DNA of 64,000 nt from Candidatus Uhrbacteria bacterium (lineage in GTDB: Bacteria > Patescibacteriota > Patescibacteriia > UBA9934). Each line of letters starts with the position of its first letter. Position 1 is the first letter of the stretch. A model generated the notes under the pieces. The model did not search any database and was not told where the DNA came from. It saw only the letters and a list, made by a program, of their open reading frames with translations. The stretch covers positions 23,569-87,568 of the forward strand of contig CAWGHH010000002.1 of NCBI GenBank assembly GCA_963822405.1. The letters run 5' to 3'. A program made the translations under genes and the position numbers. Shown piece by piece: positions 4,528 through 61,406 of the stretch.

Positions 4528-5196
4528 ATGCGTCTTGCGCCCGTTGCTCTTGTTGTTCTTCTCTTGACTACAGTTGGCGCTGGTTGTACGAATCAGGCTC
4601 CAGCTGAGTCAGTTTCTCCTTCCACAGCCGTGAAAGGAGTAAGTGATCCTGCGGAGTCTTTTTCGAACCAACCAACAACCACACCTATGGCCACCTATAC
4701 CTACCAGGGACAGCTTCCAGAGAGTGAGATTACCAATAAAGTTGTGCGCATTACTACTGAGAAGGGTGATATTGTAATTGCGCTCTATCCAGACACTGCG
4801 CCACTAACGGTTTCAAACTTTGTTTCTTTGGCTGGCAAAGGTTTTTATGACGGTACTATTTTTCATCGCATCATTAAAGACTTCATGATCCAGGGTGGTG
4901 ATCCAACGGGCACAGGCATGGGTGGTCCAGGATATCAGTTTAAGGATGAGCTGAAGGATAAGCACACTTATGTTCGAGGCACAGTGGCCATGGCTAACTC
5001 GGGTCCGGATACAAACGGTAGCCAGTTCTTCATTATGCACGCTGACGTTCCATTGCCACACGCTTACTCTATTTTTGGAGAAGTTATTTCCGGGATGGAC
5101 GTAGTTGACGCTCTCGCTTCTACCACCGTAGACGGCAGTGATCGTCCACTCAAGGAACAGAAGATGACTAAGGTGACAGTTGAGGACGCAAAATGA
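4528..5196 (+). CDS. ppiB: cyclophilin-type peptidyl-prolyl cis-trans isomerase, lipoprotein
   Basis: [15 protein letters not shown]...[14 protein letters not shown] cyclophilin core. N-terminal signal peptide with lipobox VGAGC. Confidence 0.88.
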
Positions 5197-15371: not shown

Positions 15372-15944
15372 ATGGACAGCCTTTTGAGCAAAATCTATCA
15401 GTCACAAAAAACGATCCTTACTAGTAAGGATTTGGCTTTGATTTGGCGAGAAACTGATCAAAATAATTTAAAAACGAAAATTTCATACTACGTAAAGCAA
15501 GGGTCGTTACTCCGTTTATCTAGGGGAATTTTCGCGAAAGATAGTAACTATTCTCCCAGGGAGCTGGCCACGAGTGTATATACTCCGTCGTACATAAGTT
15601 TTGAAACAGCGCTTCGTGACGCTGGCATGATTTTTCAACATCACGATACTATTTTTGTGGCTGGGCCATGGTCTAAGACGGTGCGCATTGACAAGACGTC
15701 TATTGTATTTCGGAAACTTAAAGAGAGCGTATTGTATAACCAGGAAGGGATAGAAAGAAACGAAACATATAGTATTGCTTCACCAGAGCGTGCATTTTTA
15801 GATATGATTTATCTTTTTCCAGAATATCACTTTGATAATCTTCGAGTATTAAATTGGGAGAAGTGCTTCGAATTAGTAAGAATATACAGCAATGCACAGC
15901 TGGAGAAGCGGTTAAGAAAGTATCAAAACATTTATGCTAAATAG
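15372..15944 (+). CDS. AbiEi-like antitoxin/transcriptional regulator (type IV TA)
   Basis: 190 aa; overlaps the following AbiEii-like gene by 11 nt. N-terminal wHTH-like region plus a C-terminal domain of AbiEi size. The assignment rests mainly on synteny. Confidence 0.55.
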   Translation: MDSLLSKIYQSQKTILTSKDLALIWRETDQNNLKTKISYYVKQGSLLRLSRGIFAKDSNYSPRELATSVYTPSYISFETALRDAGMIFQHHDTIFVAGPWSKTVRIDKTSIVFRKLKESVLYNQEGIERNETYSIASPERAFLDMIYLFPEYHFDNLRVLNWEKCFELVRIYSNAQLEKRLRKYQNIYAK

Positions 15945-16644
15945 AGAAAAGCACCAACTGATCATGGGGCGTATTTTGCGTGATATTTACGCTGACGCTT
16001 CGATTGCTTCATTGTTGGGTTTCAAGGGAGGCACCTGCGCGTATTTTTTTTATGACCTTCCAAGGTTTTCGGTAGATTTGGACTTTGATTATTTAGGAGG
16101 GGATGACACGGATAAGCAGTTAGTATTTGAGAAGTTGGGTAAGATCCTGGAGCAATACGGTCAGCTTAAGGATAGTTGTATCAAACTTAAAACAATATTC
16201 TTCCTTCTGTCTTATGGTGACAGTGATCACAATGTAAAAATTGAAGTAAGTACAAGGATGAACATTCCTAATTTTGGTGATCATTTTGAACTGAAAGAAT
16301 ATCTTGGTATTTCTATGCTAGTTAGTAAGCAACCATATCTTTTTGCGAGTAAGCTTGCGGCACTTACAACGCGAAGTGAGATGGCCACACGTGATATTTT
16401 TGATATCTGGTACTTTGCGAAGAGTAACTGGGATATTGATAGCGAGGTGCTCATTTTGAGGGTCGGAAAGAGTGTGAAAGACCATCTATTGGCATGCATT
16501 ACTGTTATCGAAGGAGTTAAGGACAATCAAATCCTCTATGGGTTAGGGGAGCTTGTCGACGAAAAAGGGAAGACATGGATCAAGAATCATTTACGAGATG
16601 AGGCAGTTTTTATGCTGAAAAATTATTCTTCTGTGTTGAGATGA
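15934..16644 (+). CDS. AbiEii/AbiGii-family nucleotidyltransferase toxin (DUF1814)
   Basis: LGFKGGTCAYFFYDLPRFSVDLDFD nucleotidyltransferase motif (GG..., D.D); 236 aa. Confidence 0.78.
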   Translation: MLNREKHQLIMGRILRDIYADASIASLLGFKGGTCAYFFYDLPRFSVDLDFDYLGGDDTDKQLVFEKLGKILEQYGQLKDSCIKLKTIFFLLSYGDSDHNVKIEVSTRMNIPNFGDHFELKEYLGISMLVSKQPYLFASKLAALTTRSEMATRDIFDIWYFAKSNWDIDSEVLILRVGKSVKDHLLACITVIEGVKDNQILYGLGELVDEKGKTWIKNHLRDEAVFMLKNYSSVLR

Positions 16645-47602: not shown

Positions 47603-47953
47603 ATGCGAAGCGTCGGTTTTTTTCGTTTCGTGCCGATTGTTTCTGGATTGCTCATTGTGTCGGAAATCGCCCTCATCTCTTGGCGCATTGTGCCCATGAT
47701 CTACGGACAGACCGCTGTTCCTCTGCATTATAATGTTCACATTGGTGTGGATACGGTTGGGGACTGGTGGAGAATTTACACTGTTCCGGTAGTTGCTCTC
47801 TTGGTACTTTTAGTGAACTTTGGGCTGGCTAGGTTTTTCTTCAGGCGAGAACGCGCTCTTTCTTACATGGCTTTTGGTGCTACTTTGCTACTTGAAGGTG
47901 TTTTGTTTATAGCTACCATCTTTATCATCCTCTTGAATATCTCGTATGGTTGA
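47603..47953 (+). CDS. hypothetical small membrane protein
   Basis: Three hydrophobic segments; no homology recognised. Overlaps the mraY start by 8 nt, suggesting translational coupling. Confidence 0.4.
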   Translation: MRSVGFFRFVPIVSGLLIVSEIALISWRIVPMIYGQTAVPLHYNVHIGVDTVGDWWRIYTVPVVALLVLLVNFGLARFFFRRERALSYMAFGATLLLEGVLFIATIFIILLNISYG

Positions 47954-49001
47954 TCCCTTTGCGCTCGGTAAAATTCTCCTACTCTCTACACTCGCTTTTC
48001 TAGTTGCGATTGCTTGGACTCCGGCTCTCACGCACTTTTTGTATAAATATAAGTTAGGCAAAAGTATTCGGAGCGCAGTTAAGGCGCCAATGTTCGCCGA
48101 GCTTCACAAGAAGAAGGCCGGCGTCCCAACCATGGGTGGCATTCTCATGTGGGGAACGGCTCTATTCATTGCCGTATTTTTTGCTATTTTGGCTTGGCTA
48201 TTTCCGACTAGTGGTATTGCGTCATTGAACTTTTTGACTCGTTCGCAGACTTGGTTGCCTCTGGCTGTGCTTGTGGCTGCAGGGCTAGTTGGTATCGTCG
48301 ACGATCTCTTTAATATTCTGAAGATCGGTCCAGATGGTGGCGGCATCCGTTTTCGTGAGCGCATAGTCCTTTACGCGATCATTGCCGGGATTGGTGCTTG
48401 GTGGTTCTTCTTCAAGCTTGGTTTTGATTCTCTTCATATCCCGTTTTTTGGAGACGTGGCAATGGGGGTTTGGTACATTCCGCTTTTCATCTTAGTTATC
48501 GTCGCTACATCATTCTCTGTGAACCAGACCGATGGGCTGGATGGACTGGCTGGCGGAACTCTGGCTTCGGCTTTTGCGGCCTATGCCATCATTGCGTTGC
48601 TTGAGGGTAAGGTCGAGCTGGCCGCTCTATGCGCTGTAATCGTTGGAGCTACGCTGGCGTTTCTCTGGTTCAACATTTACCCAGCGCGCTTCATCATGGG
48701 GGACACCGGCGCTATGAGTCTTGGGGTCACGCTTGGGGTGGTGGCTATGTTGACTAATACGGTGGCTCTTCTGCCTATTATTGGCATTGTTTTTGTGGGC
48801 GAGTCACTGACAACAATCATTCAAATTACTTCGAAAAAACTTTTTTACAAGAAAGTGTTTCTTATTGCGCCTATTCACCATCACTTTGAAGCTAAGGGTT
48901 GGCCAGAACCAAAAGTGGTTATGCGTTTTTGGGTGATCTCTTGGATTGGGGCTGGTATCGGTTTAATCCTGGCTCTTCTTGATCCGAGCTTCTTTTCTTA
49001 A
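47946..49001 (+). CDS. mraY: phospho-N-acetylmuramoyl-pentapeptide transferase
   Basis: NQTDGLDGLAGG and HHHFE motifs; 10 TM segments; 351 aa. Confidence 0.92.
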   Translation: MVDPFALGKILLLSTLAFLVAIAWTPALTHFLYKYKLGKSIRSAVKAPMFAELHKKKAGVPTMGGILMWGTALFIAVFFAILAWLFPTSGIASLNFLTRSQTWLPLAVLVAAGLVGIVDDLFNILKIGPDGGGIRFRERIVLYAIIAGIGAWWFFFKLGFDSLHIPFFGDVAMGVWYIPLFILVIVATSFSVNQTDGLDGLAGGTLASAFAAYAIIALLEGKVELAALCAVIVGATLAFLWFNIYPARFIMGDTGAMSLGVTLGVVAMLTNTVALLPIIGIVFVGESLTTIIQITSKKLFYKKVFLIAPIHHHFEAKGWPEPKVVMRFWVISWIGAGIGLILALLDPSFFS

Positions 49002-49022
49002 GTATGTCGGAACCGAACGCTG

Positions 49023-50096
49023 TTGGTCCTGCTCTCCGGTATAGTCCTTTTTGGACTAGCTATGTTGGCGTCAGCTTCCTGGCCACTTGGTTTTGATAAA
49101 TTTCATGACGGATATTATTTTGTAAAACATCAAGTTATTTTTGGTCTTATTCCTGGGGTGATCGGCGCAATTGTTGCCTCAAGGATTCCATATTCATTTT
49201 ACCGAGAATACGCTTGGGCCATGTTACTTATCTCTATCGGGCTTCTCGTTCTAGTCTTTGTCCCAGGTTTGAGTGCAGACTTCGGCTCTTCGAAGAGTTG
49301 GATCACGCTCGGCAGTTTTTCTGTTCAGCCGTCAGAAATTGTTAAGCTGACTTTTCTTATTTACTTGGCCGCGTGGATGGAAAAGCGTTCAAAGGATGAT
49401 CTGCATAGCGTTAATACCGGCTTGATTCCATTCATGACAATTCTTGGGGTAATTATGGGACTGTTGATTTTAGAGCCCGACACTGGCTCAATGGCGATAA
49501 TCGTCGCTATGTCATTGGCGGTATATTTTGTGGCTGGTGCGCCACTTCGTTACTTCTTTTTGTTTGGCGGGCTGGGAGCTGGAATTTTCTGGTTACTCAT
49601 AAAAATTTCGCCTTATCGAGCCGCTCGGTTTACTACTTTTCTTCATCCAGAACTTGATCCTCAGGGTATCGGTTACCACATTAACCAGGCTCTCCTCGCA
49701 ATTGGTTCTGGTGGTATTTTTGGTCGAGGGTATGGCCACTCCGTACAAAAGTTTCAGTATCTACCGGAGGTTGAAGGGGACAGTATATTTGCGGTGGCTG
49801 GCGAGGAACTTGGTTTTATTCTTACGGCCGCCTTCCTTCTAATGTATGTATCCTTTCTTTGGCGAGGTCTGACAATTGCTGACCGAGCACCAGACGCCTT
49901 TGGCCGATATTTAGCCGTTGGTATTATTTCTTGGTTCGGCATCCAGGCCTTTGTTAACATCGGCGCCATGGTTGGCGTTCTACCAATTACTGGTGTTCCT
50001 TTGCCATTTGTCAGCTACGGCGGAACTTCTCTGGCCGTCTGTCTAACAGCAGCGGGTATACTATTGAATATATCGAAGGAGATGAAAGAAACCTAA
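49023..50096 (+). CDS. ftsW: SEDS-family peptidoglycan glycosyltransferase FtsW/RodA
   Basis: GSGGIFGRGYGHSVQKFQYLPEVEGDSIFAVAGEELGF matches the SEDS signature; 357 aa; polytopic. Confidence 0.88.
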   Translation: MVLLSGIVLFGLAMLASASWPLGFDKFHDGYYFVKHQVIFGLIPGVIGAIVASRIPYSFYREYAWAMLLISIGLLVLVFVPGLSADFGSSKSWITLGSFSVQPSEIVKLTFLIYLAAWMEKRSKDDLHSVNTGLIPFMTILGVIMGLLILEPDTGSMAIIVAMSLAVYFVAGAPLRYFFLFGGLGAGIFWLLIKISPYRAARFTTFLHPELDPQGIGYHINQALLAIGSGGIFGRGYGHSVQKFQYLPEVEGDSIFAVAGEELGFILTAAFLLMYVSFLWRGLTIADRAPDAFGRYLAVGIISWFGIQAFVNIGAMVGVLPITGVPLPFVSYGGTSLAVCLTAAGILLNISKEMKET

Positions 50097-50150
50097 ATAC
50101 CGGCATGAGGAGATAGAGGGCTCCTCTCTCCTCTAGTCGACGGTGGCATT

Positions 50151-51230
50151 ATGAAAACAGTTTTATTCACAGGCGGTGGCACTCTTGGTCCGGTTACGCC
50201 TCTTTTATCAGCGGCGCGTCTTTTGCGTGAAATAAATCCGGACGTGAAAATTGTTTGGATCGGTACACCGGACGGGCCGGAACGTGAGCTTGTTGAACGG
50301 GACAGCTATGAGTTTCGCTCGCTCAAGGCACCGAAGCTAGATCGAACTCGACCGTGGACTTTGCCGTTAGTTCTTCCGCAATTTATTATCAGTTGTTTTC
50401 AGGCGTACGCTATGTTGCAGGACATTGATCCGTTTACGGTTGTTAGCGCGGGTGCGTACGTGAGCGTGCCGGTGGCCTTCATGGCGAAGACGCTTGGTAT
50501 CCCGGTAGTTATTGAACAGCTCGATGTTGTTCCTGGGATTGCGAATAAATTAATGGCGCGGGTAGCGAAAAAGATTTTTGTTACTTGGCCAGAAAATCTT
50601 TCAGCGTTTCCAAAAGGGAAGACAGAAGTGGCCGGTGGTTCTGTTCGCAAATCTATGTTGCGCGGCGAAGCACACTTGGCGCGCGAACGGTTCGGTCTTA
50701 GACGAACATTGCCGACCATACTCGTGATCGGCGGGGGTACAGGTGCGGCGAGCATGAACGAAATATTTTTGACGATCGGTCCTGAGCTTGTAAAATTCGC
50801 CAATGTGATCCATCTAACCGGCAAGGGCAAGATGTTGCCGGGGCTTGAGCAGATCGGTGACGGATACAAGGCCGTTGAATTTTTGGGCGAGTCACTTGCG
50901 GATGCCTACGCCCTTGCTGACGTCGTCGTTGCTCGCGCTGGGATGGGAACCATCATGGAGGTGGCCGCGCTTAAGAAGCCAACGATTCTCATTCCTATTC
51001 CGGGTACGCACCAAGAAGCAAATGCTAAAGCTGTGGAATCTCGTGGCGCGGCACTTTCGCTATTCGGCGACGCAACTCCGCAAAATCTTTTGCAGGCTAT
51101 TAAGAAACTTATTCAAGACGATCTTAAGCGAGCCGAACTTTCTGAGGCAGTAGGGAAGCTCTTCCTATTTAATCTCGACGAAATGTTGGTATCAGCGGTA
51201 GAGTATCCTCATGACCTGGGAAATGCCTGA
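50151..51230 (+). CDS. murG: undecaprenyldiphospho-muramoylpentapeptide beta-N-acetylglucosaminyltransferase
   Basis: MKTVLFTGGGTLGPVTPLL N-terminal G-loop and C-terminal GGGTGAASMNE motif (GT28); 359 aa. Confidence 0.9.
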   Translation: MKTVLFTGGGTLGPVTPLLSAARLLREINPDVKIVWIGTPDGPERELVERDSYEFRSLKAPKLDRTRPWTLPLVLPQFIISCFQAYAMLQDIDPFTVVSAGAYVSVPVAFMAKTLGIPVVIEQLDVVPGIANKLMARVAKKIFVTWPENLSAFPKGKTEVAGGSVRKSMLRGEAHLARERFGLRRTLPTILVIGGGTGAASMNEIFLTIGPELVKFANVIHLTGKGKMLPGLEQIGDGYKAVEFLGESLADAYALADVVVARAGMGTIMEVAALKKPTILIPIPGTHQEANAKAVESRGAALSLFGDATPQNLLQAIKKLIQDDLKRAELSEAVGKLFLFNLDEMLVSAVEYPHDLGNA

Positions 51231-51969
51231 TAGAAACTGGGTTAAGTTACTCGCGCCATCTGTCTTTTTTGGTCTTATTGCCGTTGTGCTTCTTTTGAAA
51301 TTTATTACGAGCGACGGAATACCAACGGTAGCCTCCTATCAATCATCCTGTGCAGAGCAAAATGGCGAATGGCTATTTAATAGCGCCAAGCCTACCTGCG
51401 TTTTCCCGGGCGGTCGCCTCGTCGTCTTCGACGATCGTCAGGACGGTTCGCTCCTTCCCCCTTCCAGGGGGATAGAGGGGGTCGTAAGCGCGTCAGCGCC
51501 CTCCGGCAGGGTGGCCACCTCCGACGACGCTTCTGTGCCGTCGACCGACCCCGCTCCCGAATGTGGCTACGGCCAGGTTGGTTCATTCGCCGATTATCCC
51601 GCAACGGACACATATCGAGGTCGCCCCCACAAGCCCGACTTCTCGACTTTTCCCGACGCCGCAAAGTATCGAACTGCAATTATGAAAGACGTCACACGTG
51701 GGGTGAACTTCGCTGGAGTGTATGTGATTTCTACTTGGGGTCGAGCACAGACTTTTAACGAAACAAAAACTATCGGATTCGCGATCGTTGATGCCCGAGA
51801 CGGTCGAATTATTGATTACAGTGAGCGATCCGATTATGTAAGTTGGTCGGGCGCAGTTTTGTCAGTTGATTATCAAAAAGACAGCCGGTTCTTTCGAGTG
51901 CATTCGTCTACTGGCCCCTTCGCTGAAATCATTTCGAACGGCAACGAGGTTCAATGCGGTCGCTATTAA
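51211..51969 (+). CDS. hypothetical membrane-anchored protein with an in-frame family-B repeat
   Basis: N-terminal TM segment (VFFGLIAVVLLLKFI); the LLPPSRGIEGVV segment is encoded by repeat B3; no domain recognised. Confidence 0.5.
   Translation: MTWEMPDRNWVKLLAPSVFFGLIAVVLLLKFITSDGIPTVASYQSSCAEQNGEWLFNSAKPTCVFPGGRLVVFDDRQDGSLLPPSRGIEGVVSASAPSGRVATSDDASVPSTDPAPECGYGQVGSFADYPATDTYRGRPHKPDFSTFPDAAKYRTAIMKDVTRGVNFAGVYVISTWGRAQTFNETKTIGFAIVDARDGRIIDYSERSDYVSWSGAVLSVDYQKDSRFFRVHSSTGPFAEIISNGNEVQCGRY
51457..51483. repeat. palindromic repeat family B, copy B3 (CCCCCTTCCAGGGGGATAGAGGGGGTC), inside a CDS
   Basis: 27-mer nearly identical to copy B1 at 8756. Confidence 0.8.
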
Positions 51970-52020
51970 TAAGAAAACCCCGACCGGAGAGCGGTCGAGG
52001 TCTTGAGCGAGTGTGACTCG

Positions 52021-52560
52021 CTAGTCTGCTGATGGACGTGGGAACGTGCGGTCTTGTTTGTTTTTCCGCACAAGCCAGCTTGTTCCTGTCTTGTCGAACA
52101 CATGGATCAGAATAAGGAGCCATTCCATGAGAAACCGTTTCAACCCTACGTGATAACGGAGCGGAATGATCTCAACCGCCACACCATGCGCTCGGTGGAA
52201 CGTGATCCAGAACCGCAGGGCATGTTGCCATTGGGAGATCACGGTGATGGTCCCGGTTCGCTTGCCCCAAAGTGCATCCATCACTCCGGAGATATTCTCG
52301 TAAGTATCTCGAGAACGGGTCTCGGCAATGATCAGATGTTCCTTTACTCCGCATCGTACCAGCCACTCTTTCATGAGCGTGCCCGATGGGCGGGTTTGGA
52401 TCTCCGGTGGCATATACACACCGCCCGAGACAATAATCATCTCGAACTGTCCTCTTTTCCACATGGCCAGTCCCGCGTTCAGACGCCTTTCCGTCTCCGT
52501 GCCATCGAGCTGATCGACCGGCGCCACCTCACAACTCGGAATTAGCAAGTATCGCATCAT
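52021..52560 (-). CDS. DUF218 (ElyC/SanA/YdcF-family) protein
   Basis: MIIVSGGVYMPPE...SRDTYENI core; 179 aa. Coding sequence is visibly GC-richer than the flanks. Confidence 0.65.
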   Translation of the reverse strand: MMRYLLIPSCEVAPVDQLDGTETERRLNAGLAMWKRGQFEMIIVSGGVYMPPEIQTRPSGTLMKEWLVRCGVKEHLIIAETRSRDTYENISGVMDALWGKRTGTITVISQWQHALRFWITFHRAHGVAVEIIPLRYHVGLKRFLMEWLLILIHVFDKTGTSWLVRKNKQDRTFPRPSAD

Positions 52561-52674
52561 CGGTCACCTCCAAAGTAACGGGGAATAGTAATAGATAAAT
52601 GTAGATTATGCAAAAACCCCGCCAGCCAAAGCCGTTGGGGCCTTGGTCAGCGAGGCTGACGAACGAGTCACTGA

Positions 52675-53307
52675 TTACTTGATGAGACCGGATGCCACGA
52701 GCGATTCGAGGGTGTAGACCTGCTTGCGGAGCGGTACTCCCCGTGCGAAACCGCCCTTGAAGTTGTTCCATTGCCCGAGTCCCCAGAGGAATCCGAACAT
52801 GTAGAACTCACTTCGGACTCCTGGCGTGAACGAGCTCGGCGGGAGATTCTCGCGCCGGTGAACGCGACCTGTTCTCTGATCGTCAATGATGACGTTCTTG
52901 CCCGAGGCTCTGACCCCGTCTGCGAAATCGGCAATGCAGTAGCACCGTTCCGGGAGCCTGCCGGTTGCCAGCTCTATCTCCCGCTGCGGATCAATGTACT
53001 CCACGCTGACGAGCCTTTGCCCTTCGTGGGTGGACACCATGACCGCCCTTTCGTAACCAGCCTTTCCGCGCCGCTTGATGGTAACTTGTTTGCTCATGAC
53101 GTGCTCCGATCTTGGGTTTTGCCCGCTACCGTTTCCAGCCGCGAGCAGTTTTGCCTCCGTACCCAGGACATCAGGCCTTCGCAGAGAAAAGCCTGTCATG
53201 AGAAGAACAATAATCTGTGTGATCATGTTCTTGAAATGTGGTCGAAATCCTTCGCATTGAAAGGAGGATCGACCAAGGATATTGGCATAAAAGTTGGGTT
53301 TTGTCAA
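52675..53307 (-). CDS. hypothetical protein (orphan; start possibly at internal MSKQ codon at about 53097)
   Basis: ORF in the GC-richer islet; the N-terminal 70 aa may be a signal/TM segment or spurious; no motif recognised. Confidence 0.4.
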   Translation of the reverse strand: MTKPNFYANILGRSSFQCEGFRPHFKNMITQIIVLLMTGFSLRRPDVLGTEAKLLAAGNGSGQNPRSEHVMSKQVTIKRRGKAGYERAVMVSTHEGQRLVSVEYIDPQREIELATGRLPERCYCIADFADGVRASGKNVIIDDQRTGRVHRRENLPPSSFTPGVRSEFYMFGFLWGLGQWNNFKGGFARGVPLRKQVYTLESLVASGLIK

Positions 53308-53427
53308 TGTATTTATGGATATTTATAAGCTATTTAGGGTTGCAAGTTATTTATTTTTTGTGTAAGCTACTCGCCGTTAGTGCTGAAGCCGAATTTTGGG
53401 AAGTCCGTAAAATGGGCATTCCAGTAC

Positions 53428-53500
53428 GCGCTGGTAGCTCAGCTGGTAGAGCACAGGCCTTTTAAGCCTATGGTCATGGGTTCGAATCCCATCCGGCGCA
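53428..53500 (+). tRNA. tRNA-Lys (anticodon UUU)
   Basis: Cloverleaf checked by hand: acceptor GCGCTGG/CCGGCGC, D-arm GCTC-AGCTGGTA-GAGC, anticodon loop CTTTTAA, T-arm ATGGG-TTCGAAT-CCCAT. CCA is encoded at 53501-53503. Confidence 0.92.
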
Positions 53501-53506
53501 CCAGAG

Positions 53507-53535
53507 AATCCCCTTAGAACAGGGGATTTTTTGTT
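53507..53535 (+). terminator. rho-independent terminator after tRNA-Lys
   Basis: AATCCCC-TTAGAACA-GGGGATT stem followed by TTTTTTGTTT. Confidence 0.6.
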
Positions 53536-53545
53536 TACCAAATCA

Positions 53546-53595
53546 TTGACAAAAAGCATAAAAAGTGCTAAGATTACAGGTGATCTGGAGATCAC
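53546..53595 (+). promoter_or_regulatory. promoter TTGACA-N17-TAAGAT followed by operator-like palindrome GTGATC-TGGA-GATCAC
   Basis: -35 at 53546-53551 and -10 at 53569-53574; a 16-bp palindrome at 53580-53595 lies between the -10 box and the GGAGG RBS at 53597-53601. Confidence 0.4.
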
Positions 53596-53605
53596 TGGAG
53601 GTGAC

Positions 53606-54553
53606 ATGCTGACCAAGGCGGACTTTGTTTTCCTGCTTAATGCGCTGGATGTCGCCGATGTTCTCGGGACTCCCCGGCGCCTGCCATTTCTTCTTGTGCC
53701 CCTCATGCTGGAGTGGTTCGTGGACGACCCTTTGGAGGCCATTGCGCGCCTGGCCGAGTCCGGCTGTGCACGGATGGTTTCTACGGAGGTGGTCGTCATC
53801 TACCCCGACCAGATCCTGAAGAACTCGAAGGATCTCCTGTCGGCTTCTGCGGGGCAGGTGTCTGGCAACATTGTAGAGCTCGCGTATCTTCGCTGGTCAC
53901 TGCGTAGCCATGAAGGAGTGACCAAGCTTGCCCAAGAAGAACTGATTCGGGCTTGGTATGTTGGCCGGTCTCCCCGGGCTCCGTCTACGCCGGAAACGGT
54001 TCAGAACCGTTCGCGGGTCGAGCTTCAGAGGCAGTTCCAGGAGCGCCAGAATCAAGATTCGCTTGGCCATTTGATGGATCAGGACGAATACTTACCCGCT
54101 TGTACGCCAATGCGTGGGGCGTGCGAGCTGATCGAGTTTCCGGGGTCAGTTTCTGGGGAGCCTGCTCAGTCGTCGCGGTACGTGTACCGTACGCCTCAGT
54201 GGCTGCACTACCAGATTCTCCGCGATCATCGGTACGTGGAGGAGGTGAACATTGAACTCTACGGCGAATGTCCTCTCTATGAGGGCACGTCTTACGCAAC
54301 GTTCAACCACCACCACGATCACAAGATCAATGAGCGTGCTCAGCGCCAAGCCTGGAAGGAGCGGGGCGAGTTCGTCTCAAGTGACGAAGGGCGGTACGGC
54401 CCAGGTTGCCGCTGGCGAGTGGCTGATCGGATGCTGGGCATAATCGAAAACATCGCCCCATCCATCACGCGCGCCCAGGCTGAGGACTTCATTGCTACAG
54501 GTCGCGGCTCCGCCACTCGGGTGCGTCGGCGCGCGCATTCGTTCATGAGATAG
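53606..54553 (+). CDS. hypothetical protein (orphan, 315 aa, His-rich motif NHHHDH)
   Basis: ATG 53606 with GGAGG RBS is preferred over the ORF-track start at 53531, which runs through the promoter. GC-rich; no recognisable domain. Confidence 0.5.
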   Translation: MLTKADFVFLLNALDVADVLGTPRRLPFLLVPLMLEWFVDDPLEAIARLAESGCARMVSTEVVVIYPDQILKNSKDLLSASAGQVSGNIVELAYLRWSLRSHEGVTKLAQEELIRAWYVGRSPRAPSTPETVQNRSRVELQRQFQERQNQDSLGHLMDQDEYLPACTPMRGACELIEFPGSVSGEPAQSSRYVYRTPQWLHYQILRDHRYVEEVNIELYGECPLYEGTSYATFNHHHDHKINERAQRQAWKERGEFVSSDEGRYGPGCRWRVADRMLGIIENIAPSITRAQAEDFIATGRGSATRVRRRAHSFMR

Positions 54554-54673
54554 TTTCTCGCTGATCCCTGGGTCGTGTCGTCCATTGGACACATGACTCG
54601 GGGATTTTCGTTTTGCCACAAACAAAAAACCACGTTTTTCAACGCGGTCGCCCTCAGCGGAGGGGCTTAGTTG

Positions 54674-55018
54674 CTAGCAGAAGTACGTGATGTTAATTTC
54701 CCCCATCGTGTTCGTGGCTTCGAAATTGCCGTTTTGGAGAAGATACTCGTGGAAGGCCGAGATGACGCCAGTAACTGGATCGGGTGTGAGCTCTACGAGC
54801 GCAAAGTCAAGGATGCAGTCGTCCTGATTTGCGCATGCCTCACACTCTGCCTGATGTTTTTCGTATAACTCTTTTCTGTGCCGGACGAATTCCGCGTTAA
54901 GAGATTCGACGCTTATACAGAATACTCGCCTAGTTTTCGGGTTATAGGCTGCGTGCCCCCTGAGGAATGCAATGATTAGATCGCGGACCTTGACCCGTAC
55001 GTGCTGAGCATGAGACAT
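54674..55018 (-). CDS. hypothetical small Cys-containing protein (114 aa)
   Basis: ORF convergent with the upstream orphan gene; a GC hairpin (CCCTC-AGCG-GAGGG at 54651-54664) lies between the two; Cys pattern C..CEAC..C. Confidence 0.4.
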   Translation of the reverse strand: MSHAQHVRVKVRDLIIAFLRGHAAYNPKTRRVFCISVESLNAEFVRHRKELYEKHQAECEACANQDDCILDFALVELTPDPVTGVISAFHEYLLQNGNFEATNTMGEINITYFC

Positions 55019-55096
55019 GGAACCTCCCGATAGCCAGCTTAAGACAAAATCTCTTCTAGGACAATATAGCTAATTATTGGTGGTAATATAGGGGAT

Positions 55097-57613
55097 ATGC
55101 TGGATGTACGTCCTTGGCATCATTTGAGTACCGCGGAGGTGATGACTTCGCTTGGTTCGGGGCGTGAGGGGTTAACAGAGGTTGAGGCGAAGAAGCGGTT
55201 GGCTGGGTTGCCTAAGTTGGCCAGACCGCGGGCTACTCGCTCGACTAAAATTTTGTTACGCCAATTTACTAGTCCGTTCATGTTGATTTTGGCGGTGGCC
55301 GTTGGCTTAAGTGCGGTGACGAGCGAGTGGCAAGATGTGTCTTTGATAGTCGCGATCGTTCTATTTAATGTTGGCCTTGGGTTCTTTCAAGAGTACAAAG
55401 CTGACCGAGCACTGTTTGCGCTCGCCCAGCTATTACCACGAACTGCGAGTGTACGTAGGGACGGAGTGATGAAAACTATTTCTGCGGACGAGGTTGTTCC
55501 AGGGGACGTGATGTACTTAACTTCCGGGGATCGAATAGTAGCTGACGCCCGAGTCATTTCTTCGACTAATTGTTTGACTAACGAATCTGCTTTGACGGGG
55601 GAGTCAGAACCAGTTGAAAAATTAAGTCATCACGTAGCGCTAGACGTTTCAACGCCCGAACAGCATTCTATGGTTTTTGCGGGAACAATAGTTGTCGGTG
55701 GAAAAGCGCAGGTGATGGTGGTGGGGGTAGGCGAGCAAACGGCGCTTGGCAAGATTTCGATTTTGGTTTCAGACGTTAGCGAAACAGAAACGCCTTTGAC
55801 TATAGAGCTAAAACGTTTCTCACGAAGAGTAGCTGTCTTAATTGCGCTGGTTGCTGTTGGCGTATTTTTTCTTGGCGTAGTGCGTGCCGAGCCGACCATT
55901 TCGATGCTCACTTTGTCAGCTGCCCTTGCTGTGGCTGCTGTGCCCGAGGGACTGACGGTGGCTTTGACGGTAATTTTTGTCGCTGCCATGAGGCGGATGG
56001 CTAGGCGTGGTGCCTTGACGCGGCGAATGGTGGCGGCTGAGACGCTCGGCGCGGTAACGGTTATGTGCATGGACAAGACGGGAACGCTGACCACGGGGGA
56101 GATGAAAGTAGAAATGTTCGACGGCGATAGTGAAGCAACATCGATCTTTGCGGCTCTCCTTGCGGTAAACGATGGCCATGCAACGCCTCTAGAAAAGGCG
56201 GGGAGAGAATTCCTCGACACTCGAGCACCATCAGTCCCGACACCTGTAGTGACGCATGAGTTGCCATTTGATTCTCGTCATAAATTTTCAGCCGTTGTCG
56301 CGCAGATGAATGGTGATGAAACACTATGCGTCATGGGTGCGCCCGATATTCTTTTCCAATTACTTGGCATATATCCAGACGCACTTGAGAAACTGAAAGC
56401 AACTCACCGTGAGTTAATGAGCCAGGGACTCAGAGTTTTGTTAATCGCTAAGTGCGATTGGACAGATGAAAAACTTACGGCGAAGTCTGTAAATAATCTC
56501 GTGCCAGTAAGTTTTGTTGGTTTGCGAGATCCTTTGCGAGTAGAAGCAAAGCACGTAGTCATGAATGCCTTACTCGCCGGCGTGCGTTCTGTGATGGTGA
56601 CGGGTGATCATGAAGACACAGCGCGCGGAATTGCTGTGTCGCTTGGTTTATCCGTGCACGCCGGGGCGGTAATTTCGCACAATGAACTGGTTACACTCGA
56701 CGACCAGCAACTAGCAAAACGAATTAATGCAGTTCGAGTTTTTGCGCGAGTATTACCGGAAGACAAAGTGCGAATTGTGCAGGCTTTTCAGCGAGCGGGA
56801 CACATTGTAGCCATGACTGGGGATGGGGTGAATGACGCGCCGGCACTTAAGGCCGCAGATATTGGCGTGGCCATGGGTAGCGGAACAGACGTTGCAAAAG
56901 AAGCGGCGGATATGGTCTTGCTCGACGATAATATTGCTACTTTGCTTGCCGCTATTCGGGAGGGCCGCGTACTTTATGACAATGTGCGCAAAGTCGTCGC
57001 TTACCTGATGACGTTTAGTTTGAGCGAGGTGGCGGTGATTGTATTCGCTTTGGTGGCAAATATTCCGGTCCCGTTTCTGCCGATCCATCTTTTGTTTATA
57101 AACATCGTGACTGACGGTTTTCCAGCCATGGCTTTAGCTTTTGAGTCTGGCGAGCCAGGAATCATGCGAGCTGGGGCGCGCCGGAAAGATGAAGCAGTTA
57201 TTAATTCGAACTTGTTGTGGCTCATGACGGCGATTGGTGCGGTTTCTGTCTTGTCCCTCGCGATTCTGCAAGGATTTTTGTTTAAGGCTGGAGTATCAAT
57301 TGAGGCCACTCGAACTGTTCTCTTTTTGTCCTTGTGTTTAGACGGCGTGATGGCTGTGTTTGTGATCCGTCATCTACGTGGTCATGCCTTTATGCGGGGG
57401 AGCGAGCGGAACAGAGCGTTTGTTCCGGCTGTGCTTGCGAGCATTGTTTCGATTATTCTAGTTTTGGGTGTTCCAAACCTTCGTGAGGCCTTTGGATTCT
57501 CAATTTTACCGGGTATTGGATTCGCTACACTGTGCCTTCTTCTTCTCATTAAGTTTGGTCTCTTCGAAGGTCTTAAACACCTAGTCATTCCTGAATCAAG
57601 AGGCATCATGTAG
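55097..57613 (+). CDS. cation-transporting P-type ATPase (P2/P3-type, Ca2+/Mg2+-like)
   Basis: CMDKTGTLT phosphorylation motif, TGES actuator motif (LTGESEPV), MTGDGVNDAPALK hinge motif; 838 aa; 10 TM segments. Confidence 0.9.
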   Translation: MLDVRPWHHLSTAEVMTSLGSGREGLTEVEAKKRLAGLPKLARPRATRSTKILLRQFTSPFMLILAVAVGLSAVTSEWQDVSLIVAIVLFNVGLGFFQEYKADRALFALAQLLPRTASVRRDGVMKTISADEVVPGDVMYLTSGDRIVADARVISSTNCLTNESALTGESEPVEKLSHHVALDVSTPEQHSMVFAGTIVVGGKAQVMVVGVGEQTALGKISILVSDVSETETPLTIELKRFSRRVAVLIALVAVGVFFLGVVRAEPTISMLTLSAALAVAAVPEGLTVALTVIFVAAMRRMARRGALTRRMVAAETLGAVTVMCMDKTGTLTTGEMKVEMFDGDSEATSIFAALLAVNDGHATPLEKAGREFLDTRAPSVPTPVVTHELPFDSRHKFSAVVAQMNGDETLCVMGAPDILFQLLGIYPDALEKLKATHRELMSQGLRVLLIAKCDWTDEKLTAKSVNNLVPVSFVGLRDPLRVEAKHVVMNALLAGVRSVMVTGDHEDTARGIAVSLGLSVHAGAVISHNELVTLDDQQLAKRINAVRVFARVLPEDKVRIVQAFQRAGHIVAMTGDGVNDAPALKAADIGVAMGSGTDVAKEAADMVLLDDNIATLLAAIREGRVLYDNVRKVVAYLMTFSLSEVAVIVFALVANIPVPFLPIHLLFINIVTDGFPAMALAFESGEPGIMRAGARRKDEAVINSNLLWLMTAIGAVSVLSLAILQGFLFKAGVSIEATRTVLFLSLCLDGVMAVFVIRHLRGHAFMRGSERNRAFVPAVLASIVSIILVLGVPNLREAFGFSILPGIGFATLCLLLLIKFGLFEGLKHLVIPESRGIM

Positions 57614-57625
57614 AATGTCCGCATT

Positions 57626-59083
57626 ATGGACCTCAGCAAAATCGCCAGTTTTAAGGATGCCATTGTTACCGTCATGGGACTTGGTCGGTATAAGCAGGGA
57701 AGCGGACTCGGCACTGCCAAGTGGCTCATGCGTCACGAGGCGCAAACGGTCATCACTGATTTGAAAGACGAGAAAGAACTGAAGGAATCAGTTGACCTTG
57801 TCATGGAATGGTTTAATAAATACAAGGAAATGTATCCAGACAGAACTATTTATCAGCCATTATTTATTTTGGGCGAGCATAGAAAGGAGGATTTTACCGG
57901 TGTTGATTGTGTCGTGCAGAACCCCGGCGTGCCAAGCGAGAGCGAGTTTGTACAGCAAGCAAAGGCTGAGAATATTCACATTGAGTCAGATGTCAGTTTG
58001 TTCTTCCGTTATTACCCGCATGAGATCATCGCTGTTACTGGAACAAAGGGTAAGACGACGACTACTCTCATGCTTGGCGAAATGGTGAAGACGCTTGACC
58101 CGGCCACGATCATTGCCGGTAACGTGAAGGTTTCGCCACTCGAATTCCTTGATGACCTACTTGTGAAAGACATGAAGACGCCGGTAGTGCTCGAACTCTC
58201 CTCGTGGCTCCTTGAAAGTTTGCCTGGCGCGTTTGCCGAGATGAAGAAGGGTCCAGAGATTGCGGTGTTAACAAACGTCTTCCCAGATCACTTGAACCGT
58301 TATGCTTCTTTCGAGGACTACCAGAAGTCCAAGGAAATCATTTTCGAGTACCAAACTCCAGAACAGTACACGGTCTTGAACCGTGACCACGACCTCGTCA
58401 AAGCCATGGCTTCACAAGTTAAGGGCAAGCTTTATTGGTTCTCGAAGACCGATGATGGTACTTCTAATGGCTGTTTCTTAAAGGGCGAGGCCGTTGTTTT
58501 CCGAAAAGATGGCGTCGAAACGATCATCTGTTCTTACAAGGATGTCGCACTTCAGGGCGAGCATAACCTTGAAAATGTTTTGTCGGCTGCGTGTGCCGCC
58601 ATGCTTCGAGGAGTCAGCGTCGAAGGTGTCGCGAAAGTGCTTAAGGAGTTCAAAGGCGTGCCTGACCGCCAAGAGTTGGTTCGAGAGGTAGACGAAATCA
58701 TGTACATCAATGACACAGCTGCGACTGCGCCAACTGCTGTCGTCGCCGCACTTAAGGTTTACGGCAAAGACAAGAAAGCTATTCTCATTGCCGGCGGTGT
58801 CGACAAAAAATTGCCATACGAAGAAATGATCGCGGAAGCCGTTAAGGGCTGCAAGGCCGTCATTCTGTTCCCCGGCGACGCATCCGACATTATCGAAAAA
58901 GGTTTACTTGGCAAGGTCGCCATCGAACACGCCGCTAACATGAAAGAAGCGGTCCAGAAATCTCGTAAACTTGCGGAAACCGGCGATATTGTCTTACTTT
59001 CTCCTGGAGCTGCCAGCTTCAACATCTTTAAAAATGAATTTGACCGCGGTGAGCAGTTCAGAGAAGAAGTGAGAAATTTGTAG
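57626..59083 (+). CDS. murD: UDP-N-acetylmuramoylalanine--D-glutamate ligase
   Basis: N-terminal Rossmann-like VTVMGLGRYKQGSGLGTAKWL, GVDCVVQNPGVP, P-loop IIAVTGTKGKTTTT; 485 aa. Confidence 0.85.
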   Translation: MDLSKIASFKDAIVTVMGLGRYKQGSGLGTAKWLMRHEAQTVITDLKDEKELKESVDLVMEWFNKYKEMYPDRTIYQPLFILGEHRKEDFTGVDCVVQNPGVPSESEFVQQAKAENIHIESDVSLFFRYYPHEIIAVTGTKGKTTTTLMLGEMVKTLDPATIIAGNVKVSPLEFLDDLLVKDMKTPVVLELSSWLLESLPGAFAEMKKGPEIAVLTNVFPDHLNRYASFEDYQKSKEIIFEYQTPEQYTVLNRDHDLVKAMASQVKGKLYWFSKTDDGTSNGCFLKGEAVVFRKDGVETIICSYKDVALQGEHNLENVLSAACAAMLRGVSVEGVAKVLKEFKGVPDRQELVREVDEIMYINDTAATAPTAVVAALKVYGKDKKAILIAGGVDKKLPYEEMIAEAVKGCKAVILFPGDASDIIEKGLLGKVAIEHAANMKEAVQKSRKLAETGDIVLLSPGAASFNIFKNEFDRGEQFREEVRNL

Positions 59084-59084
59084 G

Positions 59085-59327
59085 TTGGACGAGGTTTTGG
59101 TGGGCGTGGTAATGTGTAAATATATGACGTCAAAAGCCATGCAGGCAGTGATTGAGAATATTTCCGAGCGGCTCGGGATTCTTGAGCGTAAAATTGGTAC
59201 GCCGCAAAAAAAGTTAAGTCCTGAAGATCGTCAAAGAATTCATGACGAGACTTTTGGTTCGATCGATAAAAAGCGAGCGAAAGCGATGATAACTTTTCTG
59301 AATAAATCGCGGAATTCTGGGAGATAA
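59085..59327 (+). CDS. putative antitoxin partner of the downstream PIN protein (small hypothetical)
   Basis: 80-aa ORF (TTG at 59085; alternative ATGs at 59112 and 59124) ending 2 nt before the PIN gene; no known antitoxin fold recognised. Confidence 0.4.
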   Translation: MDEVLVGVVMCKYMTSKAMQAVIENISERLGILERKIGTPQKKLSPEDRQRIHDETFGSIDKKRAKAMITFLNKSRNSGR

Positions 59328-59329
59328 GT

Positions 59330-59695
59330 ATGGCACTTGCCGTATTGGATTCGAATGCTCTAATTTACCATGTGGGTGGATTGCAGACGATTCCCGATTT
59401 GCTCACGAGCACCTATGCAGTTTCCTCGGTTATTGTTTTTGAGTTATTGCGCTTTCCTGGGATGTCAAAACAGGAAGAGTCATCTTTAATCAAGGCTATT
59501 GATTATTGTGAGATTGTAGGTGTTACTGAGGCGATTGCTTTTCGAGCGGCTTTTTTGAGTCGGATACGTCCACGTGGTAAAGCTATGGATATATTTATCG
59601 CGGCAACTGCCCTGGAATTAGACATTCCTTTGATTACGGGTAACATTAAAGACTTTAAGAATATTCCCGGTCTTCAGGTTAAGAGTGAATTTTGA
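59330..59695 (+). CDS. vapC: PIN-domain ribonuclease toxin (VapC-like)
   Basis: VLDSNALIY (Asp1), FELL (Glu), DIFIAATALELDIPLITGNIKDF (Asp3/Asp4 region); 121 aa. Confidence 0.8.
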   Translation: MALAVLDSNALIYHVGGLQTIPDLLTSTYAVSSVIVFELLRFPGMSKQEESSLIKAIDYCEIVGVTEAIAFRAAFLSRIRPRGKAMDIFIAATALELDIPLITGNIKDFKNIPGLQVKSEF

Positions 59696-60993
59696 TTATG
59701 TTGCACCAGCTTAAAAAACTTGTTCCTCGTCCGGTACTTCAGATCTATCACTTCGCCCTCGCAAAAACGGCTGAGGCTGTTTATCGGCATCCGTCGGAGA
59801 AGCTCGTCGTCATCGGCGTCACGGGGACAAACGGCAAGTCATCAACGGTTAATTTCATCGCACAGATTTTGAATAACCTCGGCGAAACTGTTGGTTATAC
59901 GTCGACTGCCGGTTTTTCGATCGCGGGGAAGGAAGTCGAGAATAAGATGAAGATGACCATGCCGGGGAGATTCTATTTGCAGAAGATCATGAGCGAGATG
60001 GTGAAGGAGAAATGCGCGTACGCTGTTATTGAAACGTCTAGTCAAGGACTCGACCAGTTCCGCCACCTCGGTATCAATTATGACGTCGCTGTTTTTACAA
60101 ACCTCACACCGGAACATATTGAAGCGCACGGAGGATTCGAAAATTACAAGAAGGCAAAAGGGAAGTTGTTCGAGCATCTGACAAATCGTCGAAAGAAACA
60201 CTTTGAAGGACATGAAGTGCCGAAGACAATTATCGTGAATGGTGACGACGAACACTCGGCGTACTTTGCATCTTTTCCGGCCGATAAACATGTGTCATTT
60301 AGTTTTACGGAAAAGGTGATTCGGGCGGGTGACGTGATTCACCCTGTCGACAAGCTACCATTACGCGCCGAGTTCGAGCAGAAGAATGCGCTGGCTGCTA
60401 TTGCCACGGTTGAGGCTCTAGGTTTCCCATTGAAGCGTGTGCTCGACGCAGCTGAGTTGCTCCGACCACTCGCTGGCCGTTTCGAAAAGATCGAGCAAGG
60501 TCAGCCTTTTGCGGTTATTGTCGACTACGCGTATGAACCTTATGCGCTCCAGGCACTATATGATGCTGTGAGTGGGCCGACATCGAAGTCGGCCCTTACC
60601 TCGAGGATCATCGGTGTACACGGTTCGGCGGGGGGAGGGCGTGATATTGCGCGTCGTCCTATCATCGGCAAACTCGCCGGTGAACACGAGGCTGTAGTGA
60701 TTGTGACGAATGAGGATCCGTACGATGAGGATCCGCGAGAGATCATTGAGGCCGTTGCGTCGGGCGCTCGCGAAGCGGGGAAGATTGAGGGAAAAGATTT
60801 GTTCTTGGTCGACGACCGCAGAGAAGCCATTGAGAAAGCGTTCGAGCTCGCCAAACCGGGTGATACTGTTTTATTAACAGGCAAAGGTTCGGAACCGGTG
60901 ATGGCTGTGGCTGGCGGAAAGAAAATTGCCTGGGATGATAGAATTGCTGCGCGAGAAATCTTAGCTCAGATGGGGTATCATAAAGCCGTATGA
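59692..60993 (+). CDS. murE: Mur ligase, MurE-like (UDP-MurNAc-L-Ala-D-Glu:diamino acid ligase)
   Basis: P-loop VIGVTGTNGKSST and the IETSSQGL motif (MurE-type E.SSHGL); 433 aa with a short N-terminal domain; 4-nt overlap with the PIN gene. Confidence 0.72.
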   Translation: MIMLHQLKKLVPRPVLQIYHFALAKTAEAVYRHPSEKLVVIGVTGTNGKSSTVNFIAQILNNLGETVGYTSTAGFSIAGKEVENKMKMTMPGRFYLQKIMSEMVKEKCAYAVIETSSQGLDQFRHLGINYDVAVFTNLTPEHIEAHGGFENYKKAKGKLFEHLTNRRKKHFEGHEVPKTIIVNGDDEHSAYFASFPADKHVSFSFTEKVIRAGDVIHPVDKLPLRAEFEQKNALAAIATVEALGFPLKRVLDAAELLRPLAGRFEKIEQGQPFAVIVDYAYEPYALQALYDAVSGPTSKSALTSRIIGVHGSAGGGRDIARRPIIGKLAGEHEAVVIVTNEDPYDEDPREIIEAVASGAREAGKIEGKDLFLVDDRREAIEKAFELAKPGDTVLLTGKGSEPVMAVAGGKKIAWDDRIAAREILAQMGYHKAV

Positions 60994-61406
60994 CGAAGGG
61001 CGAGGGCGGTGGCAAAAAAAGTATTTTTCTACTAGCGACCATGGTTGTGGCTGGTGTTTTCGTTTTTGGCTTTGGCCGAGAGTACTTGCGCGAGCGAGAA
61101 ATTGCGATGCAAATTTCTTCATTGCAGGCTGAAAATGATCGGCTCGACGGGAAGAAGCTGGAGTTTTTGGATTTGATCGACAAGCTATCTAGCCAGTACT
61201 ATTTAGAAGGACAGGCTCGAACAAAAGAGGGGCTAGCGAAGCCGGGTGAGACACTTTTGGTTGTCGATGCCGGTCAGTCTGCAACTACGGTCACGTCTGG
61301 CAAGGTTCTTGGCGCAACAGACATGGCAGAGGACATTAGTAATCCAACCCGTTGGTTTTACTATTTTTTTGACCGCACCAAGTTTGATTCCATGAGTAAG
61401 CTATGA
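60990..61406 (+). CDS. septum formation initiator-like protein (FtsB/DivIC family)
   Basis: Single N-terminal TM segment (IFLLATMVVAGVFVFGFG), then a coiled coil (LQAENDRLDGKKLEFLDLIDKL); 138 aa; located in the cell-wall/division cluster. Confidence 0.5.
   Translation: MTKGEGGGKKSIFLLATMVVAGVFVFGFGREYLREREIAMQISSLQAENDRLDGKKLEFLDLIDKLSSQYYLEGQARTKEGLAKPGETLLVVDAGQSATTVTSGKVLGATDMAEDISNPTRWFYYFFDRTKFDSMSKL

Follow-up and report, generated by a model that had tools for sequence, protein, structure and literature searches.

Why is the cell-wall cluster of a Patescibacteria genome interrupted between murG and murD by several unrelated genes, two of which are conspicuously rich in guanine plus cytosine (GC) and flank a tRNA gene? 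Few bacterial gene arrangements are as conserved as the division and cell-wall cluster. We addressed this question in a 64,000-nucleotide (nt) stretch of the metagenome-assembled Candidatus Uhrbacteria contig CAWGHH010000002.1 (hereafter the window), in which 6,395 nt separate the end of murG (51230) from the start of murD (57626). This gap of about 6.4 kilobases (kb) had been noted in an initial annotation made from the sequence alone, and had been ascribed to a horizontally acquired cassette, possibly a remnant integrative element or a defence module. Comparison with relatives leads us to conclude with high confidence that a small flexible genomic islet interrupts the mraY-ftsW-murG ... murD-murE cluster in one Patescibacteria lineage, and that its anchor is a tRNA-Lys(UUU) gene passed on by vertical descent. 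The joint explanation towards which we lean is that this tRNA-anchored islet exchanges units at short repeats or through its flanks, and that one of these units, the open reading frame (ORF) ORF315, encodes a double winged-helix autorepressor.

The DUF218 gene, the tRNA-Lys(UUU), the orphans, the small Cys protein and the P-type ATPase named in the initial annotation were all located in the sequence. One gene absent from it, ORF252, shares 20 nt with the end of murG. The cluster was laid out as follows:

47946-49001, plus strand: mraY
49023-50096, plus strand: ftsW
50151-51230, plus strand: murG
51211-51969, plus strand: ORF252
52021-52560, minus strand: DUF218 gene (Pfam PF02698, expectation value (E) = 5.5e-18)
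52675-53097, minus strand: ORF140
53428-53503, plus strand: tRNA-Lys(UUU) (ARAGORN; Rfam, 73 bits)
53606-54553, plus strand: ORF315, with the ribosome-binding site GGAGGTGA upstream
54674-55018, minus strand: ORF114, with three conserved Cys
55097-57613, plus strand: P-type ATPase gene (Pfam, NCBIfam)
57626-59083, plus strand: murD
59085-59695, plus strand: small ORF and PIN-domain gene
59692-60993, plus strand: murE
60990-61406, plus strand: divIC-like gene

A conserved scaffold carries variable single-gene units

To collect relatives, the sequences of MurD cluster members and of one ORF140 homologue were looked up for exact matches, which gave the contigs L002, L004, L015 and L018; a short fifth contig, L016, was found in addition. 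MraY, FtsW, MurG and MurD were 83-96% identical between the window and these relatives, and the islet proteins only 34-74%. Ratios of nonsynonymous to synonymous substitution rates (dN/dS) were 0.02-0.07 for mraY, ftsW and murG, 0.25-0.72 for ORF140, and 0.10-0.26 for the C-terminal (C) domain of ORF315, which is under purifying selection. The gene orders between murG and the ATPase gene were:

Window: murG, ORF252, DUF218 (minus strand), ORF140 (minus strand), tRNA, ORF315, ORF114 (minus strand), ATPase
L004: murG, ORF236, ORF141 (minus strand), tRNA, ATPase
L002: murG, ORF230, 163-amino-acid C-domain protein (minus strand), ORF140 (minus strand), DUF218 (minus strand), tRNA, ORF114-like (minus strand), ATPase
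L015: murG, ORF240, ORF141 (minus strand), gene of 147 amino acids (minus strand), tRNA, gene of 94 amino acids, ORF114-like, gene of 93 amino acids, ATPase
L018 (contig begins within the tRNA): tRNA, possible unnamed ORF, gene of the 94-amino-acid family (minus strand), ATPase

Six elements, murG, ORF252, ORF140, tRNA-Lys(UUU), the P-type ATPase gene and murD, kept their positions wherever the contig reached. ORF252, ORF140 and tRNA-Lys were in place in all four relatives covering them, and the ATPase gene together with tRNA-Lys also in a fifth; every covering contig has tRNA-Lys(UUU) between murG and the ATPase gene, although the tRNA is partial in L018. Around this scaffold, single-gene units (DUF218, ORF315 and ORF114, and in the relatives genes of 93, 94, 147 and 163 amino acids), each with its own promoter and intrinsic terminator, come, go and switch sides of the tRNA. 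No two of five genomes (the window, L002, L004, L015 and L018) agree in what lies between the tRNA-Lys terminator and the ATPase gene; in L004 this slot is empty, and the terminator runs directly into the ATPase promoter. Variation is also seen upstream of the tRNA, where DUF218 is present, absent or moved, L002 carries its 163-amino-acid copy of the ORF315 C domain, and L015 has the 147-amino-acid gene.

The description of a variable islet of atypical composition beside a tRNA gene thus held, as the slot after the tRNA differs in every genome compared. The proposal of a horizontally acquired cassette had to be narrowed: it may suit ORF315 and ORF114 (53537-55073) and DUF218, which are missing in L004, and does not suit the whole 6.4 kb, since the scaffold genes ORF252, ORF140, tRNA-Lys and the ATPase gene are inherited and keep their place between murG and murD.

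Additive flexible genomic islands beside tRNA genes, tRNA-Lys among them, have been described in Methylophilaceae and Alteromonas, where they span 330 bp to 42 kb, hold 1-63 coding sequences and consist of 79-80% unknown genes (PMC10872708). The islet resembles these in its fixed tRNA-adjacent site, its conserved core flanks, a content that varies among close relatives, a size down to a single gene and mostly unknown functions. Unlike them, it shows no repeat of the tRNA 3′ end, only of the terminator tail, holds no mobile-element gene, and lies within a cell-wall and division cluster.

The ORF315 unit lies between two copies of a terminator tail

Relative to L004, window positions 53537-55073 (ORF315 and ORF114) are cleanly inserted, with the T-tract of the tRNA terminator on one side and the ATPase promoter on the other. 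Relative to L002, L015 and L018, collinearity is back at 54597: from TCGGGGATTTTCGTTTTGCC onwards the alignment shows the window running parallel to the tRNA terminator tail of L002 and then into the ORF114 terminator. The ORF315 unit proper (53541-54599, 1.06 kb, ORF315 alone) sits inside the tRNA-Lys terminator, between two 19-nt copies of the terminator tail that are identical at 15 of 19 positions. The features concerned are:

53340-53368, plus strand: candidate tRNA-Lys promoter TTGCAA-17-TAAGCT, read from the sequence, in a stretch conserved in L004
53511-53540, plus strand: intrinsic terminator of tRNA-Lys (terminator scan)
53522-53540, plus strand: left copy of the 19-nt direct repeat, GGGGATTTTTTGTTTACCA (repeat search, alignment)
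54600-54618, plus strand: right copy of the 19-nt direct repeat, GGGGATTTTCGTTTTGCCA, orthologous to the tRNA-Lys terminator tail of L002, L015 and L018
54628-54649, minus strand: intrinsic terminator of ORF114 (terminator scan), with an orthologous hairpin in L002 and L015

Unit boundaries coincided with repeated terminator or promoter sequences in the relatives too. A 45-nt terminator occurs three times between small genes in L015, 28-nt terminators bracket the ORF163-ORF140 block in L002, and 27-nt promoter repeats are present in L006, the contig of an ORF315 homologue described below. From the boundary repeats in the window and its relatives we infer a shuffling of promoter-gene-terminator units. 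Such units would be exchanged by recombination at the short terminator or promoter repeats, or via the conserved flanks (tRNA-Lys and the ATPase gene), and the exchange would proceed without a site-specific integrase.

A promoter module also recurs in L015, where 45 nt from the ORF140 promoter and the beginning of its leader occur twice (4844-4888 and 5433-5477), once in front of the unrelated 147-amino-acid gene between ORF141 and tRNA-Lys; the duplicated module apparently came in with this gene or served to insert it. Hairpins at the unit boundaries were considered as integron-like attC candidates and set aside on inspection, as they consist of short GC stems followed by T runs, i.e. ordinary intrinsic terminators, and no IntI gene was found.

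Base composition does not date the acquisition of the islet genes

The 61 ORFs of the window have a mean GC content of 48.3% (standard deviation 3.9). ORF315 (59.0% GC, 67.7% GC at third codon positions, GC3) and ORF140 (58.4% GC, 71.6% GC3) ranked as the top two in GC (z = 2.6-3.2), in agreement with the initial annotation, which had called these orphans GC-richer than their surroundings. The step from composition to acquisition fails for ORF140, which is equally GC3-rich wherever it is conserved: in every relative the ORF140-type gene has a GC3 of 0.69-0.87 versus 0.49-0.62 in flanking genes. Given that this excess persists while synonymous sites between the window and the relatives are saturated (synonymous divergence, dS, > 1.2), composition cannot be used to date a transfer. 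Had ORF140 arrived in a single old transfer, its composition would since have been ameliorated; hence its GC3 bias must be maintained, or the gene must be replaced repeatedly.

For a recent gain of ORF315, its absence from L004 would be a stronger argument than its composition. Genes of the ORF315 family mostly exceed their own housekeeping neighbours in GC and GC3, which fits a gene pool moving between genomes; no vehicle that moves them was found. Current ideas are left unchanged by these data. Their main lesson is that neither GC excess nor adjacency to a tRNA gene is in itself a sign of recent integration of an element.

ORF315 founds a small family of predicted double winged-helix proteins

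A word-indexed protein search returned only ORF315 and ORF140 themselves, although homologues exist in L002 and L004. Because that search missed real homologues, orphan status was not used as evidence, and the ORF315 family was defined by an exhaustive HMMER search of 1.84 billion representatives. This search yielded eight further clusters, seven of which were credible. Two are full-length relatives that have both ends in common with ORF315 (P0014, 333 amino acids, and P0021, 270 amino acids), and one (P0016, 553 amino acids) carries the C domain on a longer protein. The other four (P0015, P0017, P0019 and P0020; 103-162 amino acids) consist of the C domain alone, as does the separately found 163-amino-acid protein of L002. 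The C domain comprises about 110 residues, with the consensus QILRDHxFVEEVN ... LLExTSxxVF ... QRQxWKxRG ... SSDEGRYCxGCxWRV ... PSITRxQAE. The excluded cluster, P0018, is a 2,613-amino-acid repeat protein that matched residues 56-134 of ORF315 in 11 stretches, each at about 30% identity and about 35 bits; these matches are probably inflated by repetition and fall in the poorly modelled linker.

Neither ORF315 nor its seven homologues matched Pfam or NCBIfam at E up to 1, and no match to PDB sequences was obtained. AlphaFold2 modelled ORF315 with a mean predicted local distance difference test (pLDDT) of 72 and two confident domains, whose block-mean pLDDT is mostly 84-97. The N-terminal domain (residues 1-70) has the topology H-E-H-H-E-E (H, helix; E, strand), and the C domain (residues 198-314) consists of a long helix, H-H-E-E, a short helix and a long helix. 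The two are joined by a linker of about 120 residues, of which residues 81-191 are largely disordered. The top Foldseek matches in PDB and BFVD, none of them significant, were all winged-helix proteins, namely MarR, BusR, the putative transcriptional regulator 3l09, MukE, ScpB and Cdc6. R247 and Q248 are invariant across the family and lie on the predicted third helix, and the conserved QRQxWKxRG helix of the C domain would be the DNA-reading helix.

Because of this predicted winged-helix-like fold we read ORF315, with moderate confidence, as a putative DNA-binding protein with two winged-helix domains that stands outside any named family; as modelled, it is the founding member of a very small protein family with a predicted double winged helix. 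Structure prediction, proposed in the initial annotation for 53606-54553, thus yielded two winged-helix-like domains and assigned no family. An HNH-like or zinc-binding C domain was considered and dropped, as neither the HHH nor the CxGC stretch is found in every family member.

The homologues occur in varied surroundings. P0016 lies within an orphan cluster beside trmD, P0021 between a cobA-like gene and a large gene, and P0019 in a row of small ORFs on the same strand, while P0017 is located 40 nt upstream of a Mur ligase gene on the same strand and P0015 adjoins a DUF218 gene. P0014 (L006, 1687-4870) is found between rnc and proS, with tRNA-Arg(TCG) about 300 nt upstream of it and four small orphan genes behind it; this locus, in another genome, has the appearance of a further orphan islet beside a tRNA gene.

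A perfect palindrome overlies the predicted transcription start of ORF315

The TTGACA-N17-TAAGAT promoter proposed for the gene at 53606 was found at 53546-53574 on the plus strand. It is a predicted sigma-70-like promoter that agrees at 10 of 12 positions and has a TG before the -10 element; three promoter-like sites were found in the region versus 2.7 expected in shuffled sequences, i.e. promoter-like sites are not enriched there. Between the -10 element and the ribosome-binding site lies a perfect palindrome (53580-53595, plus strand), the sole full site of its kind in the window. It had been described as a GTGATC-TGGA-GATCAC operator and is better written as a 7-2-7 palindrome, GTGATCT GG AGATCAC; palindromes of this size are common, and the role of operator is hypothetical. 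ORF315 would bind this palindrome over its own transcription start and so limit its own synthesis. We hold autoregulation of ORF315 through the predicted operator palindrome with low to moderate confidence.

In several respects ORF315 is like the autorepressing winged-helix factors of the MarR, PadR and GntR types: an H-E-H-H-E-E topology is predicted, MarR, BusR and 3l09 are among its best, weak fold hits, and the gene carries a promoter of its own, with a palindrome overlying the predicted start. Unlike these factors, it has no Pfam or NCBIfam helix-turn-helix match and no significant fold match, it combines two winged-helix-like domains through the long disordered linker, and its C domain also occurs alone, in proteins of 103-163 amino acids.

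ORF140 is preceded by a conserved non-coding leader

An orphan ORF at 52675-53307 had been proposed on the far side of the tRNA gene. The ORF exists, but its start is most likely the ATG at 53097 (140 amino acids) and not 53307: all homologues begin M-x-K-Q/H at this point, and the stretch upstream is conserved as DNA while lying in different reading frames among the relatives. ORF140 is 54% identical to its homologue in L004, 56% to that in L002 and 41% to that in L015, and together with its dN/dS (0.25-0.72) this range reflects fast protein evolution. Its AlphaFold2 model reached a pLDDT of 68, and no significant fold or family match was obtained in Pfam, PHROGs, NCBIfam, PADLOC, PDB sequences or the fold search. 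An RNase-H-like fold was rejected, as its E was 0.4-1 with a probability mostly below 0.4, and conserved acidic residues were lacking on the first strand. Among genome contigs, the single match to ORF140 covered 21 residues in Caballeronia and was spurious.

The promoter and leader of ORF140 are:

53307-53302 and 53284-53279, minus strand: promoter TTGACA, 17 nt, CAATAT
53098 to about 53272, minus strand: leader of about 175 nt

Leader loci were taken from the window (53098-53307, minus strand), L004 (7016-7240), L002 (5969-6215) and L015 (5433-5641), and alignments of three and of four loci were built. Two blocks are nearly invariant. The first is a 5′ hairpin, and the second, of about 75 nt, occupies the 3′ part and reads CCUGGGUACGGAGGC...GCUCGC-GGCCGGAAACGGUA-GCGAGC...AACCCAAG. 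The GC stem holds one compensatory pair (U-A, U-G, C-G), and the leader of L002 contains a 27-nt hairpin insertion. Despite the saturation of synonymous sites, the leader is conserved above any nearby coding sequence. A search of Rfam with positions 51900-55150 at E up to 1 returned only the tRNA and left the leader without a match, and neither the DNA pattern of the leader nor the alignment of the ORF315 C domain matched metagenome contigs, in a collection evidently without these samples. The leader is a candidate for a new cis-regulatory RNA.

Weighing the joint explanation against its alternatives

Several observations weigh against the joint explanation of a tRNA-anchored islet, exchange of units at repeats or flanks, and an ORF315 autorepressor. 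The fold matches of ORF315 are weak, with E = 0.02-0.045 at best and never 1e-3 or lower, and its model rests on an alignment of only eight sequences. As to the palindrome, its size is no rarer than chance (perfect 7+7 palindromes with a spacer of 0-4 number 42 in the window versus about 19 in shuffled sequences), so that its position alone is suggestive; it is not conserved upstream of ORF315 homologues, and it could equally be a stem-loop stabilising the mRNA 5′ end, where the fold z-score of 0.17 is unremarkable. The 19-nt repeat consists of T-rich sequence from a terminator, and one intrinsic terminator looks much like another anyway. Finally, five genomes without a tree do not settle gain here versus loss in L004, and simple vertical inheritance leaves the GC3 excess of the islet unexplained.

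Could ORF315, and perhaps ORF114, be what is left of a tRNA-targeting integrative element that decayed and lost its integrase and most of its cargo, as the initial annotation had suggested? Like such elements and genomic islands, the unit lies directly 3′ of a tRNA gene, is present or absent among relatives (L004 lacks it), has an atypical, GC-rich composition and is flanked by a repeat of 19 nt, and the full-length homologue P0014 is likewise about 300 nt downstream of a tRNA gene (tRNA-Arg). Against this reading, Pfam, NCBIfam and PHROGs detected no integrase domain in any ORF between murG and murD, all ORFs of at least 100 amino acids at 47.9-62.1 kb were accounted for without a recombinase, no integrase was found in the equivalent slots of L002, L004, L015 and L018, and none of the five slot versions holds a recombinase or excisionase; a transposase, an integron integrase and phage genes were likewise missing from the region and from the relatives' slots. 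The repeat copies the terminator tail and not the tRNA 3′ end, as would be expected of an att site: with 3 mismatches allowed, the 64 kb contain a single instance of the 25 nt at the 3′ end of tRNA-Lys, and a repeat of it was not among the repeat families listed in a 20-kb search. No similarity was found between 50,697 phage records and ORF315, ORF140 or ORF114, between 72,556 plasmid records and ORF315, or between IMG/VR viral contigs and the families of ORF315, ORF140 and ORF114, and PHROGs gave no match either. Furthermore, the unit measures only 1-1.5 kb, P0021, P0016 and P0019 are not beside tRNA genes, and the GC3 excess is common to the conserved ORF140. We therefore regard a decayed integrative element as unlikely.

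It is more doubtful still that ORF315 and its short relatives made of the C domain alone serve this lineage as specific regulators of the cell-wall and division cluster and are sited where they act. Family members do lie near mur genes in the window, in the same cluster of L002, in L016 (beside DUF218) and, for P0017, next to a Mur ligase gene; however, common descent probably accounts for the islet in the window, L002 and L016, which hence do not count as independent cases, whereas P0014, P0016, P0019 and P0021 occur in unrelated contexts. Moreover, L004, L015 and L018 retain the cluster and lack the gene, and no DNA motif common to the regions upstream of family members was found.

Still further from what we would expect is a second joint explanation, in which the tRNA-Lys terminator would be an integrase-free hotspot for mini-cassettes, with ORF315-type proteins guiding their own cassette to terminator/promoter junctions, and the ORF140 leader would represent a new class of cis-regulatory RNA restricted to Patescibacteria; we rate this combination as very improbable.

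Defence genes are often located in variable islets beside tRNA genes. This siting, the fast evolution of the islet genes and the small ORF plus PIN-domain gene between murD and murE of the same cluster notwithstanding, an anti-phage defence or toxin-antitoxin-like module is scarcely credible here, as a PADLOC-DB search at E up to 0.1 with ORF252, DUF218, ORF140, ORF315 and ORF114 matched no family, no enzymatic domain was predicted, and the units are single genes that occur independently in the relatives and not a fixed multi-gene system.

Compared with these alternatives, the joint explanation of unit exchange around tRNA-Lys with a putative ORF315 autorepressor is the one we retain. The islet yields three small protein families without known relatives, one of them predicted to bind DNA, and one strongly conserved non-coding leader. 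Given the tiny genomes of these bacteria, the few accessory genes likely matter for host-dependent life.

The other islet genes and further observations in the window

ORF252 has an N-terminal hydrophobic segment and conserved Cys residues, and its homologues stand in the same place in L004 (74% identity), L002 (61%) and L015 (49%). It belongs to the inherited scaffold and not to the variable part; searches of Pfam, NCBIfam, PHROGs, PADLOC and PDB sequences gave no credible match for it or for ORF114, and it could be a component of the division and cell-wall operon particular to this lineage. At the other end, the ATPase gene encodes a type II P-type cation ATPase that is 72-91% identical in L004, L002 and L015 and is present in L018; it is part of the conserved scaffold and forms the right border of the variable slot.

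The DUF218 gene is an accessory cassette of the islet. It occurs in L002 (67% identity) on the opposite side of ORF140 and in L016, and is absent from L004 and L015. Proteins of the DUF218 family (ElyC/SanA) have been linked to the cell envelope in other bacteria, and the gene is therefore not obviously misplaced in a mur cluster. ORF114, which is divergently oriented from the ATPase gene, has the conserved residues C59, C62 and C68 and the motif PDPxTGV..HEYLLxNGxF but no family match. Its homologues lie beside the ATPase gene in L002 (34% identity) and L015 (44%), and it is absent from L004 and L018.

The order mraY-ftsW-murG ... murD-murE-divIC (window 47946-61406) is conserved in all relatives examined and is unlike the classical order murE-murF-mraY-murD-ftsW-murG. 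A second variable slot was observed between murD and murE. It holds the small ORF and PIN-domain gene (VapBC-like) in the window (59085-59695) and in L004, nothing in L002 (11458-11503), and an orphan of 860 amino acids in L018 (4732-7314). One Patescibacteria lineage thus tolerates two hypervariable slots in this cluster, at tRNA-Lys and between murD and murE.

Elsewhere in the window, two overlapping genes of low GC content (37.9% and 39.4%, z of about -2.5) are located at 15372-16644. The second encodes an AbiEii-type nucleotidyltransferase toxin (Pfam E = 2.3e-17), and the two are probably an acquired AbiEi/AbiEii toxin-antitoxin pair. Directly after this pair, an 826-amino-acid gene of 55.9% GC (16917-19397) carries 13 MopE-type putative metal-binding repeats (Pfam E = 2.2e-104).

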